A stretch of DNA of 64,000 bases from Escherichia coli (GTDB taxonomy: Bacteria; Pseudomonadota; Gammaproteobacteria; Enterobacterales; Enterobacteriaceae): the NCBI RefSeq assembly GCF_044647545.1, contig NZ_CP172818.1; one strand, written 5' to 3'. Shown here piece by piece: positions 5,311-57,782 of this stretch. The notes beneath the pieces were generated by a model. It saw only the letters and a list, made by a program, of their open reading frames with translations, did not search any database and was not told where the DNA came from. The position numbers were made by a program, and so were the translations under genes. Every line of letters begins with the position of its first letter. Within the stretch, counting starts at the first letter, position 1.

Positions 5311-6576
5311 ATGAAAGCGATCTTAATCCCATTCTTATCTCTTCTGATTCCGTTCACCCCGCAATCTGCATTCGCTCAGAGTGAGCCGGAGCTGAAGCTG
5401 GAAAGTGTGGTGATTGTCAGTCGTCATGGTGTGCGTGCTCCAACCAAGGCCACGCAACTGATGCAGGATGTCACCCCAGACGCATGGCCAACCTGGCCGG
5501 TAAAACTGGGTTGGCTGACACCGCGCGGTGGTGAGCTGATCGCCTATCTCGGACATTACCAACGCCAGCGTCTGGTAGCCGACGGATTGCTGACGAAAAA
5601 GGGCTGCCCGCAGCCTGGTCAGGTCGCGATTATTGCTGATGTCGACGAGCGTACCCGTAAAACAGGCGAAGCCTTCGCCGCCGGGCTGGCACCTGACTGT
5701 GCAATAACCGTACATACCCAGGCAGATACGTCCAGTCCCGATCCGTTATTTAATCCTCTAAAAAATGGCGTTTGCCAACTGGATAACGCGAATGTGACTG
5801 ACGCGATCCTCAGCAGGGCAGGAGGGTCAATTGCTGACTTTACCGGGCATCGGCAAACGGCGTTTCGCGAACTGGAACAGGTGCTTAATTTCCCACAATC
5901 AAACTTGTGCCTTAACCGTGAGAAACAGGACAAAAGTTGTTCATTAACGCAGGCATTACCATCGGAACTCAAGGTGAGCGCCGACAATGTCTCATTAACC
6001 GGTGCGGTAAGCCTAGCGTCAATGCTGACGGAGATATTTCTCCTGCAACAGGCACAAGGAATGCCGGAGCCGGGGTGGGGAAGGATCACTGATTCACACC
6101 AGTGGAACACCTTGCTAAGTTTGCATAACGCGCAATTTTATTTACTACAACGCACGCCAGAGGTTGCCCGCAGTCGCGCCACCCCGTTATTGGATTTGAT
6201 CATGGCAGCGTTGACGCCCCATCCACCGCAAAAACAGGCGTATGGTGTGACATTACCCACTTCAGTGCTGTTTATCGCCGGACACGATACTAATCTGGCA
6301 AATCTCGGCGGCGCACTGGAGCTCAACTGGACGCTTCCTGGTCAGCCGGATAACACGCCGCCAGGAGGTGAACTGGTGTTTGAACGCTGGCGTCGGCTTA
6401 GCGATAACAGCCAGTGGATTCAGGTTTCGCTGGTCTTTCAGACTTTACAGCAGATGCGTGATAAAACGCCGCTATCATTAAATACGCCGCCCGGAGAGGT
6501 GAAACTGACCCTGGCAGGATGTGAAGAGCGAAACGCGCAGGGCAGTGTTCGTTGGCCGGTTTTACGCAAATCGTGA
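5311..6576 (+). CDS. appA: Periplasmic acid phosphatase / phytase AppA with aberrant C-terminus (about 421 aa; canonical about 432 aa)
   Basis: MKAILIPFLSLLIPFTPQSAFA signal peptide and RHGVRAP histidine acid phosphatase motif; C-terminus ends ...NAQGSVRWPVLRKS instead of the canonical ...NAQGMCSLAGFTQIVNEARIPACSL. Confidence 0.85.
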   Translation: MKAILIPFLSLLIPFTPQSAFAQSEPELKLESVVIVSRHGVRAPTKATQLMQDVTPDAWPTWPVKLGWLTPRGGELIAYLGHYQRQRLVADGLLTKKGCPQPGQVAIIADVDERTRKTGEAFAAGLAPDCAITVHTQADTSSPDPLFNPLKNGVCQLDNANVTDAILSRAGGSIADFTGHRQTAFRELEQVLNFPQSNLCLNREKQDKSCSLTQALPSELKVSADNVSLTGAVSLASMLTEIFLLQQAQGMPEPGWGRITDSHQWNTLLSLHNAQFYLLQRTPEVARSRATPLLDLIMAALTPHPPQKQAYGVTLPTSVLFIAGHDTNLANLGGALELNWTLPGQPDNTPPGGELVFERWRRLSDNSQWIQVSLVFQTLQQMRDKTPLSLNTPPGEVKLTLAGCEERNAQGSVRWPVLRKS

Positions 6577-6581
6577 ATGAA

Positions 6582-6840
6582 CGGGGGGACGACGGGCGAC
6601 GGGGGCCGCGGGGAAGACGACGGGACGCGGGGCTATCCGCCAGCGCGGCTGTTCGCGTTGCGGGTCGCGGCGCGGGCCCCGTGGTGCGCCTGCCGCTGGG
6701 CGCCTGGCCTGCTCGGCCTGCGGGGGTTGGTGCGGCGGGGCCGCTTGTCCCGCCGGGCGCCGCGCGCGTCCGCGGGCGGCCGTCGGCGCTCGGCGCGGGC
6801 GGGCCGCGCCTCGGGGGCCGCCCCCCCCGGGCGCCTCTCC
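6582..6840. other. Anomalous extremely GC-rich segment (about 260 bp, mostly G/C) between appA and cspH
   Basis: Composition completely unlike the flanks; G-tracts and a C8 run; only composition-driven Arg/Gly/Pro/Ala ORFs on both strands. Confidence 0.8.
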
Positions 6841-7054: not shown

Positions 7055-7339
7055 ACAAATTCCTTACTGAAAATACTGCGCTGCACTATACGGGGTTAAT
7101 AAAATAAAGCCAGCGATATTTAAGACCGCCGGACGGCTAAAATAAAATTTGCTTAATCTCAATTATCATGCGTTAATAGCTGCGTCGGTTTGAAAGACAG
7201 ACAGCATACAAAGTAGTTTACTAAAGCAGTTCTCATTATCAGGCATTATCCCCTTCTTTTGAGTCTCTCTCCTGAACACTAAGTAGTTTCTGTATTAAAG
7301 CCCTGTTTGCCGAAAGGCCCAAAATGAAGGAAGTAAAAT

Positions 7340-7552
7340 ATGTCTAATAAAATGACTGGTTTAGTAAAATGGTTTAACGCAGATAAAGGTTTTGGCTTTA
7401 TCACTCCTGATGATGGCAGCAAAGACGTTTTCGTCCATTTCACCGCCATCCAGAGCAATGAATTCCGCACGCTGAACGAAAATCAGAAAGTTGAATTTTC
7501 TATTGAGCAGGGGCAACGTGGTCCCGCGGCAGCGAACGTTGTTACGCTCTAA
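7340..7552 (+). CDS. cspG: Cold shock protein CspG
   Basis: 70-aa [29 protein letters not shown]... with long 5' leader as in csp genes. Confidence 0.92.
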
Positions 7553-7751
7553 GGTTGCCGTTATTACTCAACATCTCCATTTCCGCTGTCCATGTTGTCA
7601 TGGTTCACAGTACCGCACATCGGCATTCGATGTGACGGAGCGAAATCCTTTAGGGGCAAAGTGTATTTTTTGTAAATCGACGATGATCACCTTTGATAAC
7701 GTCGCGCTGCAAATACGCACTGAGCATGCGCCGCTGGATTTCACAAAATAA
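7518..7751 (+). CDS. ymcE: Small protein YmcE (Sfa-like); start uncertain, overlaps the cspG 3' end
   Basis: ORF ...[35 protein letters not shown]... ending 7751; start codon choice (GTG 7518) is tentative. Confidence 0.5.
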
Positions 7752-35005: not shown

Positions 35006-36514
<1,509 letters not shown>

Positions 36515-36515
36515 G

Positions 36516-36550
36516 AGAGGCAATCAGTGATTGCCCTCTGCGTTTTTTCT
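36516..36550 (+). terminator. Rho-independent terminator after putP
   Basis: gagaggcaatcagtgattgccctc hairpin followed by a T-run. Confidence 0.7.
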
Positions 36551-40609: not shown

Positions 40610-41376
40610 TCAAAGCTCGTCGCGAGGCAAAACGTGTGCTGAGACGGGATTCGCGCAGCCATAAGCAGCGTGAAGAAGAATCGGTCACCTCGCTTGTGCA
40701 GATGAGCGGCGTAGAAGCCATTGGTATGGCCCGCGACAGTCGCGATACTTCGCCCATCCTCGCGCGAAATGAAGCGCAATTGCACTATCTGAAGGCTATT
40801 GAGAGTAAGCAGCTGATATTCGCCACGGGCGAAGCTGGGTGCGGAAAAACCTGGATCAGCGCAGCAAAAGCGGCAGAGGCCCTGATACATAAGGATGTCG
40901 ACAGGATTATCGTCACCCGTCCAGTTCTGCAAGCCGATGAAGATCTTGGCTTCTTACCTGGTGATATCGCAGAAAAGTTTGCTCCCTATTTTCGCCCGGT
41001 CTACGATGTGCTGGTCCGGCGCTTAGGGGCTTCCTTTATGCAGTACTGCCTGCGACCAGAAATAGGGAAGGTGGAAATTGCGCCGTTCGCCTATATGCGT
41101 GGACGTACCTTTGAAAATGCAGTCGTCATTCTTGACGAGGCGCAGAATGTGACTGCCGCGCAAATGAAAATGTTTTTAACCCGCCTCGGGGAGAACGTGA
41201 CGGTTATCGTCAACGGTGATATCACGCAATGCGATTTGCCTCGCGGCGTGTGCTCCGGATTAAGTGACGCGCTGGAACGTTTCGAAGAGGATGAAATGGT
41301 CGGGATCGTCCGATTCGGTAAAGAGGATTGCGTACGTTCGGCACTTTGCCAACGTACGCTACATGCATACAGTTAA
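40588..41376 (+). CDS. phoH: PhoH ATPase core (short form, 262 aa)
   Basis: ATG 40588 MGRQKAVIKARREAK...; Walker A GEAGCGKT; ORF track shows an upstream alternative start at 40453. Confidence 0.85.
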   Translation: MGRQKAVIKARREAKRVLRRDSRSHKQREEESVTSLVQMSGVEAIGMARDSRDTSPILARNEAQLHYLKAIESKQLIFATGEAGCGKTWISAAKAAEALIHKDVDRIIVTRPVLQADEDLGFLPGDIAEKFAPYFRPVYDVLVRRLGASFMQYCLRPEIGKVEIAPFAYMRGRTFENAVVILDEAQNVTAAQMKMFLTRLGENVTVIVNGDITQCDLPRGVCSGLSDALERFEEDEMVGIVRFGKEDCVRSALCQRTLHAYS

Positions 41377-41425: not shown

Positions 41426-41839
41426 TTATACCCGGACTAGCGTTTTTTCTGAAACCACCATTTTTATTTGTCCCTGGCTGGTGAAGTGTACGCTCATCCT
41501 GTGGCTTTTTTGTAGTTGCTGATAAAGCTCATCAGGTATTGCTAAGCTCTCTGCATATTCTCGCGGCGTATATTGGTATGCTGCATGATGCTGCTGTTTT
41601 TTAAAACGCAGCTTATTGTACAATGCCCAGACGATTAACACGACGGCATTCGCCACTGCCAGCAAAAAATAGAACTGAAGTCGGCTTCTGGCCTCGCTTT
41701 GCCAGTAATAACCCGTCAGCAGATCAATGGCGAATAAGAATATGAACAAAGCAAATAATGTCCACAAGATGGTTGTGGCAACATAATCAACCAGTAAACG
41801 TACTGGCGATTGTCGGGTCGTAATAATTAGATTGTTCAT
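41426..41839 (-). CDS. pgaD: PGA biosynthesis protein PgaD
   Basis: 137-aa membrane ORF. Confidence 0.9.
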
Positions 41840-41840
41840 A

Positions 41841-43166
41841 TTAACCTCTCAGAATCCCACGATCGGGACTTACCCAACGAGCGCGTTGTTTTTTAGGCAT
41901 CAACATGACTCGTGTAAATGATACCAATGTCGTTGCCAGGCTTAGCATCCAGAAAATAACCGGGAACCAAATAATCCAGAAAAGCGATGAAGCCAGATTG
42001 TGCTCATAGCGATTCTCAATCACCAGACTGACAATAAATTGCAGTAAACATAACGTACACAATAATATTCCGGCAGTATGTGTCGCTGCGATATGTGTCA
42101 ATTCAATATTTAACGGTACACCTGCAAGTTGGACTGCGTAAATAATGAAACCGACCAGGCAGGTAAAGGCCCATATTGTCGTCAGACAGTATTCAAAAAA
42201 CAGTGGCCACATTCGAAAGTTTTCTTTGCGCCATAGCCTTGTCATATTTTTGAGGAATACTTCTGCACCGCCCTGAGCCCAGCGCAGGCGCTGTTTCCAC
42301 AGCCCTTTTAACGTTTCAGGCATTAATATCCAGCACAGCGCCCGTGGCTCGTAAAAAATCGTCCACTGATTCAACTGCAGCTTCCAGCTAATATCAATAT
42401 CTTCGGTGATCATATCGTCACTCCAGTAACCCACTTCTGCCAGGGCGCTGCGACGAAATGCGGCAATAACACCGGAAACTGTAAATACGTTTCCATAGAT
42501 ACGCTGGGTCCGCTTGATCAAACCAATAATTGAGGAATACTCGCCAACCTGAATTTTACCCACCAGGGTAGAACGTGTGCGAATACGAGGATTACCGGTT
42601 ACGGCACCCACACGCGGGTTGTACAACATCGGTTCCACAATATATGCCGCCGCATCGCGGTCTAATAACGCATCGCCATCAATGCACACCAGATATTCAC
42701 TTTTCGCCGCGGCAGCTCCGGTTTTAAGCGCAATGGCTTTCCCCTGGTTTTGCGCCAGATGAATGACCCGCAGGTGGGGAATTTGTGCAGCCATGCGATC
42801 CAGGATGGCACGGGTTTTGTCTGTTGAACCGTCATTTACGGCAATAACTTCAATGTTCTCATAACGCTGTGCTAAAGCGGCGTGTATGGTTTCCTCAACG
42901 TTTTTCTCCTCATTAAAACAGGGAATGATAATGGAGATAGACGGATTATCTTTCAACTGGGGGGCTGGTGCGTTTTCTCCCCACGGCCAGTGGCGTTCAC
43001 GATAGACCCAGAAATAGACGCCGCCAACAATCCACATAATGGACATAAAAAACGGCCAGAAGAAAACGAACCTCATCATCAGTTCACCAGAGTGAAAGTA
43101 CGCTACGCATAGGGGGATGCATAACACCAGACATAATATAAAAAACGATACGATGCGATTAATCAT
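41841..43166 (-). CDS. pgaC: Poly-beta-1,6-N-acetylglucosamine synthase PgaC (GT2)
   Basis: 441-aa ORF with glycosyltransferase family 2 motifs. Confidence 0.92.
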
Positions 43167-45177
43167 TTTTCGGATACCAGGCTGTTGAAAACTCAGGACG
43201 AATAACGTCTATTTCAGGTTGGTTATGCAGAAAATTGTCGGGATAATAACCATAATTTTTCACTCCATTCAGTTGTAATAGGCTCATCCAGTGAGCGAGT
43301 TGTTGTGAAGAAATAGCCTGATGCTGACCATTTTTCTGCCAGTTTTGTGCCTGTAATTCTAAAATTGATTTGTCTTTAGCCTGCGGGATGCTTTTCATCT
43401 GATTGGTCAATTGTGTTAACCATTGATCAGCCAATTTTTCTGTGACGCCTTCCATATAAGGCATAGCCATAATAGCGGTCCAGTCATAGCTTTTTAGGAA
43501 ATCAGCATAATTCTGTGCAAACCAGGCTTCACTTTCAGGTTGTATTACCGGAAGTGCAAAAATATTTCGTGCAGTTTTAACATGTGGACCACGAATGGCT
43601 TTTACGCGCGCACTAAGTTCTAAAGTGAAGTCAGTTAACGCACGACTTTTAAAGCGGGTCCACTGTTTAAATTGCTCCGGGTTTTGTCGAATTTCGCTCA
43701 GACTCCCGCTAAAGCCAGCTTGCTGATAAGCCGCGATAGCCGGTGCACTGGCATCTTCATAATCTGAAAGCAAAGCATCATCGTGGAACAATATGCCATC
43801 AAAAGCAGCATGTCCGGCAAGATCATCATATAACATGCCAACTTGTGCTCTGACCCTGTCATCGAAAGGAGAGAGACGGCGGTATTGTTCAGGATGAATT
43901 TGTGCTTTTTTCTCCCCAGTTGGTAAGTATTTTACTCGCGTTAATGTGGGATCTAAATCCCAGCTTAATACCGGCATCCACGCATAGATGTTTACACCTG
44001 AGCGGGTACGCAATTGCCAGGCAACCCGACTAAAAATATCTGCTTTCATTGGTAGCAAACGATTTGGAAACCAGACCTCTTTAACCAGCCCATCACCATC
44101 GGGATCAGCAAATGCTTGTAAATACACGGTAGATATTTGCATATCTTTTACCCGCTGAATTAGCACATCAATATTGCGATCCATTTGCTGGCGGTTTTCG
44201 TCATAAATGTAATCAAGATCGATATGCATTACCCGTTGTAGTGGTTTTTCCTGTACGGTAATAATTTGCTGGGCAAACTCTTTTAATGAGGGATTATTGG
44301 CGATTAATACTCGCGGAATGGAATCTAATTGCGACGCATTTGCCAAACCTGATTCAAGGGTGAAGAACATGTCATAACCGAGTTTTTTTAATTCCGCGAT
44401 TGCTATGCCATTCGCTTCGCCATAAGGCCAAACAAAAACGTGTGGATTTACCTCAGCCTTTGTACGCAGGTATTCCGTCATTTTTACAGCATCCAGACGA
44501 ATTCTTTCCCGGTATTCTGCTGCGGTTTCATACCGTGCGTGGTCAGTAAAATATGCACGATTTACATATACAGGCAATAAGCTGCCGGTGGCATTAGCCT
44601 GAATACCGTAGTGAGAATTCCATGTATGAGAAGCGACCTCAACGAGCCGGGAACGCGCAACTTCTCGCACTTGTTGCCACGTGGCAAAATATTCTCGATC
44701 GACCATCTCATCGCCAAATTTTACTTGTTCATCCGCTGGCGTATCGACCCAACTGCCGACGGGGGCCCATACAGCAGGCCACTGGAAGGCCTGAAGAATT
44801 GGGAAGACGCGGGTATAAAAACTCTGGTAGCCGTCATCAAAAGTCAGCACTACTGCTTTTTCCGGTAGCGGTTTTCCTCCTCGATGTGCTTCACGAATTT
44901 GAGCAATACTGACCGGTTGATAACCGTTCTCGCGCAGCCAGGCAAATTGTTCACGCAGTGCTGATGTTCGCACTGACATAAAACGCTGGTCGGCAGCTTC
45001 GTCTTCAACGTTATGCCATGAAATCGCCACAAAACCATTATGCGGCCACGGTTGCTCGGCGAGTAAAGATTCGCGATCCTGTGGCGGTATAAATGATGTT
45101 CTTGACTGGCTAATGCACGCAGTGAGCATAATTATACTCACCAGCATCAGGATATATTTATTTCCATTACGTAACAT
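43159..45177 (-). CDS. pgaB: PGA N-deacetylase PgaB
   Basis: 672-aa ORF with lipoprotein signal (LTACISQ). Confidence 0.92.
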
Positions 45178-45185
45178 ATTTATCC

Positions 45186-47609
45186 TTAAAATCTGAATGT
45201 CATATCGAATTCAACGTATAAGTTGTGTTCTCTGTCACCGTCATAAGGTCGTTTTTCCCAGCGTAGCGTTGCGCCAGCATCAATCACGTCATTCCAGCTA
45301 ATACGTTGCCCGTAGCCGAGTTGGGTGACGACATCCGTGCCATAATGTTTTTGCCAGGAGGCACCAACACCTGCGCTGAAGATTTGCTCCCAGCTATTTT
45401 CATAGCTACGCCATAACAAATGACTTGCCTCAAATGCCGGAACAATATCGAACGTTTTTATAGGGTTGTAGTATGGAGTGTCGTGTTCTGTATTTTGTTC
45501 GTAATACAGATTGGGTAGGAAATCGACAATCAAATATGGTGAAGACCAGATGCGTTCCTGACCCTCAAGTGAGACTTCCTGACGCTGGTTACTGTCGGAA
45601 AAATCAGTGAAAGCCCAGGAGACACCGTACTTACGCCGCTCATTTTGATACCAGCGAACATAAGCCTGAGCACTGTTGCCTGTAACACCATTTTTCATTG
45701 CCCGTAATGGAACGCGGTGAGAGAGGCGTTCCAGTTGCGAACCAATACGCCAGTTATCATTAAAATCATACCAGCCAGATAGGCGCGCGCCGGGTTTATG
45801 CTCATGATTGAAAACGCGTTCAGCGTACTCCGCCTCGAGCCAGATATTACGTGACCGCCACTCAACACCCGCCAGCCAGTCGCGAACAATCCCTTTTCCT
45901 TCGCTAAATTGTCCATCGGCATAACCGAATCCAGCAAAACCGCGCCAGTTATCCTTCAGCGGTGGTGAATAAACGATGGTGGTTAAGTCGACATCATGTT
46001 TACCACTATCCGGGCCTTCGGCATCAATTCCTGTTGAACCAGCTATACGAAGCTCTGCAAGATTATGTACATCAACCGCACGTTTTAAACGTACAACGCC
46101 GGGATCTTGCGGTTCACGTTCGACAACATCGTGCGTTAAGACAGCTGCCTGCTGCCATTCTTGTAACGTTAATGCTGTCCATGCTTGTTCAACCTCCAGA
46201 TTAATATTACGTGGCTCGATCACTTCTGCTTTTTTTAATTCATTTTCTGCTGCACGAGGCCAACCGCGGGCTTGTAACACACTCGCGTAATCAATGCGCA
46301 GTCCCTGATTTCCTGGTGCGTTATAAGCAAGCTCTCTGGCTATCATTTCAGCCTGAGGAAGATCATTACTATATTTTGCTACGGTTGAGAGAAACGAATG
46401 CCCCTGTAACCAGGTATCATTCGGGATGCTCGTAGGCGTGCCCATTAACCGAAGGAAAGGCGGCGAAGTATTAATGGTATGTTGGGTGACAGTTAGCGCG
46501 CCGGGATAATTTTCACTCTCCAGGTGGCTGTAAAAGAGATCCGCAAGTTCTTCATCGGATAAATCCGGGGCAATGGTCTCCTTGTGATAAAAGAGCTCTG
46601 TCATTATTGACTGTGCTTTTTTTGGCTGATGTTCTTTGAGATAAGCCGACGCAACCCAATATTGCGCCCAGGGTGGAATAATTTGCCCCGTCTTTTTTAA
46701 ACGCTGATAGTGAGAAATAACGTCTTTATAACGATCGCGAGTTAATAACGCGCCAAGATGATCAACCTGAATACGCTGGTACTGGGCAGTGCGGTCAGGG
46801 TTATCATACCAAAGAATTTCTAATGCAGCGTATTGGGCGAGGGCGCGATCGGCAATGGCATAACGTTCACTTTCACTGCGCGTAGGCATAAACGACAGTC
46901 TGACCAGTTCGGCATGAATATCAGCGCGAATATCTGGCGTTAAATTGGCATCGTCAATCGCGGCAGTAAGTTGATTATTCCGTAATGCCTGCACGTATTC
47001 TGTGGGATATTGTTGCGTTAAGGCATTTTCAGGTAATGATCCTGTCATCGCCCGTAATTCATCCTCATGCCGCCCCGCCAGTTTATAGATATAGGCTTCT
47101 GCGAGTAAATTAGCTTTGTCCGGTGCTCCAGAGTTAAGCTGCTTAAGTTTAACCAGCGCAGAATCATAGTGACCCGCATCTGCCAGGGTTAAAATTTGTC
47201 CCCGTTGATAATCCTTATTTTGCGACTCCAGAGAGAGTGCCTTTTGCCACAGTGTAAGCGAGTTTTGCCATTGTTGCAGGTTACGATAAGCGACGGCGAC
47301 AGCTGCATAACCACGCGCTGGTAATTGCTGATGACGGTAGCGGTTGTAAACGGTAATAACCTGTTTATCTTGCCCGGCCCATAAGGCAATCTGTAACCAG
47401 TCAGCAATTTGGTTATTACTGAGAGCTGATTTTTGTGCAAACCATAACAAAGCTGGCTGAGTATTTCCCTTGCGAGCTTCGATAATCAATGCATCATAGG
47501 CATTATTAACAGCACTCTTCGCCGCGGGACTCGCTGCTAAAAATGCGGCAGTAAGAATTTTCAAAGCCCATTTGGTTTTCGGGCACCTTTTTCTGCTACT
47601 TGAATACAT
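45186..47609 (-). CDS. pgaA: PGA export outer membrane porin PgaA
   Basis: 807-aa ORF with signal peptide. Confidence 0.92.
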   Translation of the reverse strand: MYSSSRKRCPKTKWALKILTAAFLAASPAAKSAVNNAYDALIIEARKGNTQPALLWFAQKSALSNNQIADWLQIALWAGQDKQVITVYNRYRHQQLPARGYAAVAVAYRNLQQWQNSLTLWQKALSLESQNKDYQRGQILTLADAGHYDSALVKLKQLNSGAPDKANLLAEAYIYKLAGRHEDELRAMTGSLPENALTQQYPTEYVQALRNNQLTAAIDDANLTPDIRADIHAELVRLSFMPTRSESERYAIADRALAQYAALEILWYDNPDRTAQYQRIQVDHLGALLTRDRYKDVISHYQRLKKTGQIIPPWAQYWVASAYLKEHQPKKAQSIMTELFYHKETIAPDLSDEELADLFYSHLESENYPGALTVTQHTINTSPPFLRLMGTPTSIPNDTWLQGHSFLSTVAKYSNDLPQAEMIARELAYNAPGNQGLRIDYASVLQARGWPRAAENELKKAEVIEPRNINLEVEQAWTALTLQEWQQAAVLTHDVVEREPQDPGVVRLKRAVDVHNLAELRIAGSTGIDAEGPDSGKHDVDLTTIVYSPPLKDNWRGFAGFGYADGQFSEGKGIVRDWLAGVEWRSRNIWLEAEYAERVFNHEHKPGARLSGWYDFNDNWRIGSQLERLSHRVPLRAMKNGVTGNSAQAYVRWYQNERRKYGVSWAFTDFSDSNQRQEVSLEGQERIWSSPYLIVDFLPNLYYEQNTEHDTPYYNPIKTFDIVPAFEASHLLWRSYENSWEQIFSAGVGASWQKHYGTDVVTQLGYGQRISWNDVIDAGATLRWEKRPYDGDREHNLYVEFDMTFRF

Positions 47610-47843
47610 CCTGTATTACTCCATGTATTGCCAAAATCTCTCTCTGTATCTAATTACAGGTAACTGAAACGAAAGATATTTTTTTTGCACATCATAATCC
47701 GTTATTAAACGCGGAAGAGAGACGTGAATTGTTGATGATGAGAAGAAGAAATGATGAGTAGAGTATCCATATAAAATCCTTTTCTCGCCCGAAAATCCAT
47801 TCCAATGATGAGGATCTTCAGGAATACGGCATAAATCCCAATG
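47610..47843 (-). promoter_or_regulatory. pgaA 5' untranslated leader with GGA (CsrA-type) motifs
   Basis: Minus-strand leader reads ...ttggcaatacatGGAgtaatacaGGAtgtattcaagtagc with GGA motifs over the SD and start codon. Confidence 0.65.
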
Positions 47844-48198
47844 CCTTTTTCAAAATAAATTAGGATTAAAATAATTAAATCAGTAAATTCCGATGCATGA
47901 TATCGGATTTTTCGAAAGTCCTGATGAAATGCAGCGTTACTGTACTCACGGATTCAATTGTTATTCCTAATATATCTATGAATTAATGTTTTATAAGGAT
48001 TTCCTTATAACCATTTATATGTATTTGCAAGCCTGTCTTGTCGCGAAGAATGTATAAAGCACTAAGGTAATAATAATTGCGGTCTGCAACTATCATCATT
48101 GGTATTGTTTGTGGTGGATTTTTATATTGACAACAGTACAGTTCTTATATCTATTAATGACAGAAAGGGATCTACAACCTACAGATTGGTGTAGCTTT

Positions 48199-49617
48199 AT
48201 GGAAAAAGACTATTTGGGAATTAGTAGTACTGTATTAGTGAGTTTATTGTTTGGGCTTGCGTTGGTTTTGGTGAATAGTTGGTTCAATCAGCCAACCGTT
48301 GAGGAAGTTGTTCCACGATCAACCTATCTGATGGTTATGATTGCTTTATTTTTTATCGATACTGTTGCATTTATTTTTATGCAGTTGTATTTCATTTATG
48401 ACCGTAGGCAATTTTCAAACTGTATACTTAGTTTGGCTTTTCTAAGTTGTTTGATTTACTTTATTAAAACCGTCATTATCATTCAGCAAATTATTGAGGG
48501 GCGTTTGACAAGCAGTGTTGTTCAAAATGACATTGCAATTTATTATTTGTTTCGTCAGATGAGTTTGTGCGTATTAATATTTCTGGCATTGGTAAATAAA
48601 GTTAGTGAAAACACAAAACAGCGCAATTTGTTTTCCAAAAAAGTGACTTTGTGCATAACTTTGTTTTTTGTTCTTGGGGGGCCGATAGTTGCTCACATAT
48701 TTTCTAGCCATTATGAGAGCTACGATTTACACATTGCCGAGTTAACCAATGAAAATGGTCAGGTGGTTTGGAAAGCCTCATATGTTACCATAATGATTTT
48801 CATGTGGTTAACCTTGCTTTCGGTTAATCTATACTTTAATGGTTTACGCTGTGATATCTGGAACGGGGTGTCGGTGATTGCTTTTTGTGCCGTGCTGTAC
48901 AATATCTCTCTGTTATTTATGAGCAGGTATAGCGTGTCCATTTGGTATATTAGTCGCACTATTGAAGTAGTCAGTAAGTTAACCGTTTTGGTAATTTTTA
49001 TGTGCCATATATTCAGTGCGCTACGAGTAACAAAGGACATTGCACATCGCGATCCCTTAACCAATATATTTAACAGAAATTATTTTTTTAATGAACTGAC
49101 GGTTCAATCAGCATCGGCCAAAAAAACACCTTATTGCGTCATGATTATGGATATTGACCACTTCAAAAAAGTCAACGACACCTGGGGACATCCGGTTGGC
49201 GATCAAGTGATAAAGACAGTGGTGAATATCATTGGGAAAAGCATACGACCAGATGACCTTTTAGCGCGCGTTGGCGGCGAAGAGTTTGGCGTCTTGCTGA
49301 CGGAGATCGATACTGAATGTGCGAAAGCTTTAGCGGAAAGGATTCGGGAAAATGTTGAACGTTTAACTGGCGATAATCCTGAATACGCCATACCACAAAA
49401 AGTGACGATTAGTATTGGCGCTGTTGTAACGCAGAAAAATGAGTTAAACCCTAAGGAGATCTATCAACTGGCTGATAACGCACTTTACGAGGCGAAAGAG
49501 ACCGGGCGTAATAAGCCGCTGTCGCCAGTTGTCGACCTCCGCTTGGGGCTTCTCATCCCCCCGGTGTGTGCAATATACGAAAAAAAAGCCCGTACTTTCG
49601 TACGAGCTCTTCTTTAA
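48199..49617 (+). CDS. dgcT: Diguanylate cyclase DgcT (YcdT) with divergent, extended C-terminus
   Basis: MEKDYLGISSTVLVSLLFGL... membrane N-terminus, GGDEF domain with RVGGEEFGVLL; ORF runs about 20 codons past the expected end into the serX terminator. Confidence 0.85.
   Translation: MEKDYLGISSTVLVSLLFGLALVLVNSWFNQPTVEEVVPRSTYLMVMIALFFIDTVAFIFMQLYFIYDRRQFSNCILSLAFLSCLIYFIKTVIIIQQIIEGRLTSSVVQNDIAIYYLFRQMSLCVLIFLALVNKVSENTKQRNLFSKKVTLCITLFFVLGGPIVAHIFSSHYESYDLHIAELTNENGQVVWKASYVTIMIFMWLTLLSVNLYFNGLRCDIWNGVSVIAFCAVLYNISLLFMSRYSVSIWYISRTIEVVSKLTVLVIFMCHIFSALRVTKDIAHRDPLTNIFNRNYFFNELTVQSASAKKTPYCVMIMDIDHFKKVNDTWGHPVGDQVIKTVVNIIGKSIRPDDLLARVGGEEFGVLLTEIDTECAKALAERIRENVERLTGDNPEYAIPQKVTISIGAVVTQKNELNPKEIYQLADNALYEAKETGRNKPLSPVVDLRLGLLIPPVCAIYEKKARTFVRALL
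49579..49607 (-). terminator. Rho-independent terminator of serX (minus strand)
   Basis: cgtac-tttc-gtacg hairpin adjacent to an A-run on plus (U-run on minus), immediately 3' of the tRNA. Confidence 0.65.
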
Positions 49618-49620
49618 ATA

Positions 49621-49708
49621 TGGCGGTGAGGGGGGGATTCGAACCCCCGATACGTTGCCGTATACACACTTTCCAGGCGTGCTCCTTCAGCCACTCGGAC
49701 ACCTCACC
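49621..49708 (-). tRNA. serX: tRNA-Ser (GGA anticodon)
   Basis: Reverse complement reads GGTGAGGTGTCCGAGTGGCTGAAGGAGCACGCCTGGAAAGTGTGTATACGGCAACGTATCGGGGGTTCGAATCCCCCCCTCACCGCCA with long variable arm and 3' CCA. Confidence 0.93.
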
Positions 49709-49902
49709 AAATTGTCGTTCCTGTCTTGCTGGAACGGGCGCTAATTTAGGGAAATCATGACCTGAGGTCAACAAACTTTTTTAAAAAATCGCTCGATTAT
49801 TCAAACTTCAATCAATATGCAGTTTTAATAAGCGAAATTTGCTTTTTTTGCCACCGACCACGGATTTGTTATGCTGGTGGCTTTTGTAGATCATAACGAT
49901 AA

Positions 49903-54601: not shown

Positions 54602-55252
<651 letters not shown>

Positions 55253-56007
55253 GATGAAACCCCGCTTTTTTTTATTGATCGCACACCTGACAGCTGCCTC
55301 TAAAATAGAAGCACCAGAAGTACTGACAGATGTTGCACTGCTGTGTGTAGTAATAAATCAGCCCTAAATGGGTAAAATATAAAACTAATGGATTACATCT
55401 GATTTCAATCTAGCCATTACAAATCTTAAATCAAGTGTTAAACATGTAACTAAATGTAACTCGTTATATTGAAATGTTAATCTTAAGGTTTTATTAAGTT
55501 TAGAAATGATAGAAAAGTTGTACATTTGGTTTTTATTGCACAATTTTAAAAAATCATACAAATGGTGCTAACTTGCTAATAATGCATATAAAAAATATTT
55601 CGGTGTAGTCCTTTCGTCATGTAAAACGTTCTTGTTTTTTCTCTACACCTCCTTGGACAATTTTTTACTGCAAAAAGACGAGGTTTGTCACGGCTTGTGC
55701 GCAAGACATATCGCAGCAATCAGCGACGTGCAAGAAGAATGGCTGTCTGGTGATTTTTGATTGCGGAAAACGGAGATTTAAAAGAAAACAAAATATTTTT
55801 TTGCGTAGATAACAGCGTATTTACGTGGGTTTTAATACTTTGGTATGAACAAAAAAAGAAAAATACAACGCGCGGGTGAGTTATTAAAAATATTTCCGCA
55901 GACATACTTTCCATCGTAACGCAGCGTTAACAAAATACAGGTTGCGTTAACAACCAAGTTGAAATGATTTAATTTCTTAAATGTACGACCAGGTCCAGGG
56001 TGACAAC
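55253..56007. promoter_or_regulatory. csgD-csgB divergent intergenic regulatory region (AT-rich, about 750 bp)
   Basis: Long AT-rich non-coding interval between divergent csgDEFG and csgBAC. Confidence 0.8.

Positions 56008-57402: not shown

Positions 57403-57782
<380 letters not shown>

Follow-up and report, generated by a model that had tools for sequence, protein, structure and literature searches.

GGA motifs and attenuator elements in the pgaABCD leader of an Escherichia coli strain, a very probable two-level CsrA docking platform

Genomic context of the pgaABCD leader

The stretch of DNA analysed here (the window, 64 kb in its full length) originated from an Escherichia coli chromosome and carried the pgaABCD operon on the minus strand; dgcT (ycdT), which encodes a diguanylate cyclase, faces away from it on the plus strand. 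The coordinates of the operon, its promoter region and the elements recognized in its 5' leader are collected in Table 1. The region 47300–48300 was 100% identical to strain CFSAN061771 and approximately 95% identical to MG1655, and it had a match in 4,295 of the 5,426 complete E. coli genomes, while a shorter 300-nt query for the leader (47601–47900) showed 97.7% identity to MG1655. About 21% of the complete genomes (1,174/5,426) were without a leader match and in some of them, such as NZ_CP050044.1, nothing beyond the initial 41 nt of the promoter-distal query was left, which indicates a recurrent loss of the pga locus.

Table 1. Features of the pgaABCD operon and of its leader in the 64-kb window. 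Positions with a plus sign are counted from the putative transcription start at 47846 unless K-12 numbering is indicated.
Feature	Window position	Strand	Remarks
pgaA CDS	45186..47609	-	ORF of 807 aa; first gene of pgaABCD; name from the annotation of the 100%-identical strain
pgaB ORF	43159-45177	-	672 aa; annotated in the strain identical over 47300-48300
pgaC ORF	41841-43166	-	441 aa; annotated in the strain identical over 47300-48300
pgaD ORF	41426-41839	-	137 aa; annotated in the strain identical over 47300-48300
pgaABCD promoter region	47847..47940	-	NhaR-activated in K-12 (literature); 1 substitution vs K-12
-10-like TATTTT	47857-47852	-	putative; assigned by reading of the sequence
pgaABCD 5' untranslated leader	47610..47846	-	237 nt; +1 by homology to the 234-nt leader of K-12
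5'-terminal hairpin GGCAU-UGGGAUUU-AUGCC, +2 to +19	47828..47845	-	predicted; loop GGA +9 at 47838-47836
Adjacent GGAs +44/+49 (uuGGAauGGAu)	47796..47803	-	predicted base-paired (+44 partly)
Attenuator L arm, K-12 +61-81	47766..47786	-	AAGGA (GGA 47779-47777) and AUGGA (GGA 47768-47766); identical to K-12
Attenuator R arm, K-12 +82-107	47765-47740	-	start of the rut region
C-rich, G-poor rut region for Rho, including the R arm	47712..47765	-	rut role shown in K-12 (PMC4052769)
ACGGA motif at +147	47698..47702	-	located by the GGA count; putative CsrA site
AGAGAGAGA run, +202-210	47637..47645	-	identical to K-12; candidate non-GGA CsrA site
Translation-initiation hairpin AAUACAU-[GGAGUAAUACAGG]-AUGUAUU	47603..47629	-	predicted; SD GGA and start GGA; ATG at 47609-47607

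Scanning of the minus strand upstream of +1 for the sigma-70 consensus did not produce a promoter match, a result that is expected, and uninformative, for a promoter dependent on the activator NhaR. The promoter/terminator scan also returned a plus-strand 'terminator' at 47828–47845, which was rejected: it is the pgaA 5' hairpin seen from the opposite strand, where the hairpin followed by TTTTT scores as terminator-like. At the gathering score, the search of the whole window against Rfam left the leader without a family match, and lowering the threshold to E ≤ 1 for the region 47500–48300 yielded matches at chance level only. Further along the operon, a strong Rfam match (187 bits) to the Yersinia antisense sRNA Ysr251 was located at window positions 41178–41371 (-), just 3' of pgaD and on the strand antisense to the convergent phoH, at the 3' end of that gene. 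Conservation of the phoH coding sequence may be all that the match reflects, or else transcription reading through out of pgaABCD.

On the divergent side of the intergenic region, dgcT (48199–49617, +) had GGAs at 48168–48170 (aaGGGAuc) and at 48201–48203 (AUGGAA, over the start codon). The same gene, under the name ycdT, is a published single-site CsrA target and, together with pgaA, this means that two mRNAs under CsrA control, transcribed in opposite directions, would share the 589-bp intergenic region. At its 3' end (49515–49617), dgcT differed from the closest strain: approximately 50 nt were missing and the normal stop codon was gone, the last 17 residues giving way to a 34-aa tail that ended at most 4 nt from tRNA-Ser, with a resulting protein length of 472 aa vs 455. 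Neither the GGEEF motif nor the end of the GGDEF domain was affected. A comparison over 49566–49710 showed an IS3 element immediately beyond dgcT in MG1655 (K-12), whereas in this strain the gene is directly followed by tRNA-Ser(GGA) at 49621–49708.

Extent of the leader and its differences from K-12

The preliminary description placed the leader at 47610–47843, an interval that directly abuts the pgaA start codon on its upstream side and, with 234 nt, has exactly the published length of the K-12 pgaA leader (PMC4052769). In this strain, however, a run of eight adenines (A8) occupies the place of the A5 run found in K-12 (K-12 +161–165), i.e., there is an AAA insertion, and this expansion moves the K-12-homologous +1 to 47846 and makes the leader 237 nt long. 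The start at 47846 is thus a putative one, deduced by homology, and the 3-nt shift of the leader start is of no consequence. All positions below refer to +1 = 47846, so that position p corresponds to window position 47847 - p; the K-12 numbering is equal through +160 and 3 lower beyond.

The K-12 pgaABCD 5' UTR (Wang et al. 2005; Figueroa-Bossi et al. 2014, PMC4052769) belongs to an orthologous locus with the same gene order, and its L arm, C-rich rut tract, SD and start context are identical to those of the strain analysed here. Next to the A5-to-A8 expansion, four substitutions separated the two leaders in the alignment with MG1655, at K-12 positions +82 (C>T), +88 (G>A), +156 (G>T) and +174 (T>G). 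All eight GGAs of the K-12 leader and its AGAGA run were unchanged, and the SD/AUG region was also free of differences.

GGA motifs and their assignment to CsrA sites

The presence of repeated GGA motifs in the minus-strand pgaA leader, including ones over the SD and the start codon, had been noticed already in the preliminary description, and both observations were confirmed by counting. In total, eight GGAs were found, at +9, +44, +49, +68, +79, +147, +225 (SD) and +236 (start). Seven of them lie on the minus strand inside the originally described interval, while the eighth (caGGAtg, 47611–47609) shares the A of the ATG. The string quoted for the SD and start region, catGGAgtaatacaGGAtgtattc, was located at 47625..47602; within it the SD GGA (47622–47620, part of a GGAG) and the start GGA are 11 nt apart.

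GGA was the most over-represented trinucleotide of the leader (3.1x), with only three GGAs on the opposite strand of the same interval, and along the full 64 kb just 0.6–0.7% of all 237-nt windows had at least eight. Mononucleotide shuffles of the leader had a mean of 2.35–2.57 GGAs with P(≥8) = 0.001. Dinucleotide-preserving shuffles, in which the GG and GA counts are kept and the probability is marginal for this reason, had a mean of 4.97–5.19 with P = 0.04–0.06. The GGA excess is genuine, yet modest once the GG and GA dinucleotide frequencies are held. The high expectation in the latter shuffles speaks for an explanation in which the GGAs simply follow from composition and the presence of a normal Shine-Dalgarno, without a regulatory role in this strain; against this stands the identity of the sites to those footprinted and mutated in K-12, and further evidence on the same question was provided by the folding and the interspecies comparison described below.

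Six CsrA sites were identified in the K-12 pgaA leader by Wang et al. (2005), as cited in PMC4052769 and PMC7652899, and their positions were reconstructed here from such secondary sources. According to the same two papers, translational repression depends on the two sites over the SD and the AUG, mutation of which relieves about 60% of it. Since the +61–81 deletion removes both 5'-proximal sites (PMC4052769), the GGAs at +68 and +79 correspond to sites 1 and 2. The ACGGA at +147 is probably one of the two middle CsrA sites, and the AGAGAGAGA run is probably a non-GGA one: Table 2 of Kulkarni et al. (PMC4066749) includes AGAGA among the secondary CsrA sites, one of the two references given for it being Wang 2005 (pgaA), and this listing points to the run at +202–210. 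With these assignments, the published six sites are likely to be +68, +79, +147, the AGAGA run, SD and AUG. The GGAs at +9, +44 and +49 appear to fall outside the six footprinted sites, so not every GGA in the leader need be a CsrA site.

Predicted structures in the leader

The 5'-terminal hairpin was the best-folded element of the leader (-6.7 kcal/mol, 94% of the ensemble, z = -2.0) and exposed its GGA in an 8-nt loop. The hairpin predicted at the translation start carried the SD and start GGAs at opposite ends of a 13-nt loop and was weak (-3.5 kcal/mol); the GGA bases were mostly unpaired across the ensemble, the probability of being unpaired ranging from 0.43 to 0.98 for the individual bases. 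A count of GGAs in predicted hairpin loops, proposed as a check in the preliminary description, gave a divided outcome: a loop position was obtained for the GGAs at +9, SD and AUG, while those at +49, +68 and +147 and both G's of +79 were predicted to be paired, and +44 partly so. A paired state of +68 and +79 is what the attenuator model expects.

This model was developed for K-12 by Figueroa-Bossi et al. (2014, PMC4052769), who described a hairpin at +61–107 with the two 5'-proximal CsrA sites in its left arm (+61–81) and the start of the rut site in its right arm (+82–107). Binding of CsrA nucleates at the stem base, on the first of the two sites; this opens the hairpin and exposes the rut, resulting in Rho-dependent termination in the distal leader. 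In the same work, deletion of the left arm locked expression off, while deletion of the right arm increased it about 10-fold and was epistatic to rho and nusG mutations; the CsrA-stimulated Rho termination was obtained with the K-12 sequence both in vitro and in vivo, the latter in a Salmonella host.

The attenuator architecture was present in this strain as well, with a weak hairpin, two CsrA sites in its 5' arm and the rut start in its 3' arm. The L/R hairpin (+61–107), with the GGAs +68 and +79 in the left arm, was imperfect and had a predicted energy of -6.0 kcal/mol vs -6.4 kcal/mol in K-12; the 54 nt at +82–135 contained 19 C, only 2 G and 15 YC dimers. Compared with shuffled sequences there was no excess of folding stability (z = -0.28 for the whole leader, -0.22 for the L/R hairpin and -0.67 for the SD hairpin), which means that structure alone would not have flagged the leader. 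Such absence of significance in the predicted local structures also favors the composition explanation, but the published attenuator model itself needs a weak hairpin (PMC4052769).

Two of the substitutions, K-12 +82 C>U and +88 G>A, are both located in the R arm and alter the predicted upper stem of the hairpin, and the AAA insertion is positioned 3' of the rut region. These changes raise the question of whether the attenuator is weakened or otherwise altered in this allele, leaving mainly the translational repression. Such an effect is considered unlikely, given the nearly same predicted energy of the two hairpins, the intact state of the stem base, of the +68 nucleation site and of the C-rich tract, and the fact that the allele is a common one, found in 417 genomes at ≥99% identity.

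Conservation across leaders

The comparison was based on an alignment (A1) of 13 leaders, nine of which came from typical E. coli, two from divergent Escherichia with about 80% identity (strain 54 and SCPM-O-B-8794) and two from Citrobacter, whose PgaA proteins had 72–74% identity. Within E. coli itself the conservation of the leader was high: 4,161 of the 4,252 genomes matching the leader query (47601–47900) were at least 95% identical to it, with a small class at about 80%. The PgaA scan of genome contigs resulted in four loci and the protein search mainly in E. coli fragments. In the Leclercia locus (L007), pgaA was disrupted and the 300 nt preceding it lacked GGAs, and three distant metagenome pga loci (L008, L010 and L012), whose leaders were not alignable, were kept out of the evidence; two of these three had GGAs around the called, provisional start codon.

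Among the nine typical alleles none of the 20 variable columns fell into the 24 GGA columns (2.0 expected, P = 0.12), and after addition of the two divergent Escherichia leaders this was the case for 3 of 73 (7.2 expected, P = 0.036). Four GGAs, at +9, +68, SD and start, were kept in 13/13 leaders from Escherichia to Citrobacter, the Citrobacter leaders being barely alignable outside them. The +68 site (AAAGGAUUU) and the ACAGGAUGUAU over the start codon were invariant in all 13, and the SD GGA was present in all of them with a displacement of 1 nt in Citrobacter. The +9 loop GGA was likewise invariant in 13/13 together with its GCAU/AUGC stem, the loop reading UGGGA, AGGGA or AAGGA in the three lineages, and the 5' hairpin ranked among the best-conserved elements of the leader. 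The C-over-G tract was found in 6/6 lineages examined for such a tract.

The remaining GGAs were less stable. Those at +44 and +49 were present in 9/9 typical E. coli leaders, with +49 also retained in the divergent Escherichia, and both were absent from Citrobacter. The +79 GGA was missing from the divergent Escherichia and the Citrobacter leaders, and the +147 GGA, present in 9/9 typical E. coli, was replaced by GGG in the divergent Escherichia. The latter leaders (L003 and L004) had therefore lost +79 and +147, with +44 moved by 1 nt to +45, and had new GGAs at +59 and +187/188, so that their total was still eight. This turnover at a constant count suggests that the number of sites is maintained.

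The avoidance of the GGAs by sequence variation, the maintenance of their count despite the turnover of positions and the persistence of four of them in Citrobacter leaders that can otherwise barely be aligned all argue against composition as the explanation of the motifs, which is accordingly regarded as extremely improbable. The comparative data fit the published hierarchy of sites, in that the invariant ones are those of nucleation (+68) and of translational control (SD and AUG). Site 2 (+79) and the +147 site, judging from the aligned leaders, appear to be dispensable in evolution; for site 2 of K-12, the sequence was found to be less important than the stability of the hairpin (PMC4052769).

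Other features of the window

For ymdA (57471–57782, +), activation of translation by CsrA is reported in PMC7492729; with pgaA and dgcT, this makes three CsrA-targeted genes located within 10 kb. A match to the Rfam sRNA family ES056 was obtained at 55309–55400 (-), in the 5' UTR of csgD (CDS about 54602–55252, minus strand); with csgD and pga, both major biofilm-matrix loci, curli and PGA, are present in the window.

The most puzzling item in the window, unrelated to the pgaA leader, is a 249-nt block at 6582–6830 (+) with a G+C content of 85.5%, the next-highest 249-nt window reaching 64%. In CFSAN061771, which is 99.97% identical elsewhere, its place at the 3' end of appA, shortly before cspH, is taken by 16 nt. 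A 1-nt deletion is located about 45 nt upstream of the block, and the appA reading frame terminates prematurely at 6576, its tail being altered. By blastn the block was without a match in the 5,426 E. coli genomes, in PLSDB plasmids and in phages; a search of metagenome contigs for exact copies of one of its 24-mers was also negative. Possible origins are foreign DNA, an artefact of the assembly and an engineered insertion. Another difference from CFSAN061771 was a 39-nt indel at 36514–36521 in the efeU-putP intergenic region. Two further Rfam matches, a cspA-type thermoregulator at cspG (7184–7606, +) and the REP-derived nucleoid-associated RNA naRNA4 (18288–18366, -), are expected in this chromosomal region.

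Interpretation and mechanism

Orthology of the locus, identity of the sites, the GGA excess, the hairpin/rut anatomy and the conservation were all observed directly in this analysis. Taken together with the K-12 work, they make it very probable that the stretch is the 5' leader of the pgaABCD mRNA, acting as a CsrA docking platform through which expression would be shut off at two levels. CsrA binding, competition with the ribosome and Rho termination are carried over from the experiments in K-12 and are expected to operate here by analogy. Since every element of the scheme is present and essentially unchanged, the same mechanism can be assigned with high confidence, and it is presumably unaltered in this strain.

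At the first level, attenuation, CsrA would bind the left arm of the weak +61–107 hairpin during transcription, through the GGAs at +68 and +79; an arm occupied by CsrA would not pair with the right arm, the C-rich rut would become exposed, Rho would load and transcription would stop ahead of pgaA. At the second level, translational repression, CsrA bound at the SD and AUG GGAs would exclude the 30S subunit and make the mRNA less stable. Titration of CsrA by CsrB, CsrC or McaS would lift both blocks and allow the PGA adhesin to be made. Competition of CsrA with the ribosome (30S) at SD/AUG is established for K-12 (PMC4052769, PMC7652899), where CsrA also lowers the stability of the transcript and has an indirect effect by repressing the activator NhaR and reducing c-di-GMP synthesis (PMC7652899). 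The preliminary description explained the leader by CsrA translational repression of PGA synthesis, which holds for the SD and AUG sites, base-for-base those of K-12, but it omitted the Rho-dependent attenuation: the +68 and +79 GGAs work through CsrA-induced Rho termination and not through translation (PMC4052769).

The literature on K-12 also bears on the idea that the main regulator is something other than CsrA, with the GGAs of secondary importance, the candidates being McaS pairing at the rut, a leader peptide and a riboswitch-like or PNPase-dependent switch. A 21-codon ORF does begin at +77, within CsrA site 2, but mutation of its AUG (+78 in the published numbering, +77 here) was without effect, by which the leader peptide was ruled out (PMC4052769). 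For McaS, a target within the R arm had been proposed, but direct pairing of this small RNA to the leader was tested and excluded in K-12: the activation by McaS survives deletion of the proposed site and is lost in a csrA plus L-arm double mutant, and McaS activates pgaA by titrating CsrA (PMC4052769). The authors of the latter paper raised a riboswitch-like possibility as well, and PNPase-dependent cis determinants are described in the 5' UTR, but the PNPase effect was proposed to be indirect, via the levels of CsrB, CsrC and CsrA (PMC8151843). With regulation reported to be lost in a csrA deletion strain of K-12, a main regulator different from CsrA is considered very unlikely, and control by CsrA is retained as the preferred explanation of the leader.

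In its general design, the leader resembles other multi-site CsrA-repressed leaders (glgC, cstA, nhaR and ydeH/dgcZ), which have at least two GGA sites around the ribosome-binding site, one of them over the SD. In these, a CsrA dimer bridges sites located 10–63 nt apart, a range that covers the spacing of the SD and start GGAs in pgaA (11 nt). The pgaA leader differs from them in having the most sites and in being the only one for which coupling to Rho termination is described.

The GGA in the loop of the 5' hairpin (+9) is the only feature of the leader that might be new. It is possible, though doubtful, that it represents an unrecognised seventh CsrA site with a role in seeding and bridging or in decay, in a leader whose number of GGAs is under selection. 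As a seeding site, it might promote co-transcriptional loading of CsrA before the attenuator hairpin forms, bridging to +44/+49 or to +68; another possible function would be a link between CsrA and decay that depends on the 5' end. The related proposal, that the number of GGAs and not only their positions could be under selection, comes from the divergent Escherichia leaders, which retain eight although three have moved. A precedent for CsrA acting at an mRNA 5' end is the flhDC transcript, where its binding gives protection from RNase E. The conserved GGA hairpin of pgaA (+2 to +19) would be comparable, CsrA binding there being hypothetical; in contrast to flhDC, which is stabilised and activated by CsrA, pgaA is repressed and destabilised.

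The pgaA leader is a textbook case of multi-layer CsrA control over the switch between the free-swimming and the biofilm state, already known from the well-studied K-12 leader. With the leader intact, the strain analysed here very probably regulates PGA synthesis in the same way as K-12, and no new question is opened by it. A small refinement comes from the comparison of leaders, with four GGAs kept across genera, the apparently dispensable +79 and +147 sites and a conserved 5'-hairpin GGA that seems to lie outside the six known sites, and it could guide a dissection toward a minimal leader.
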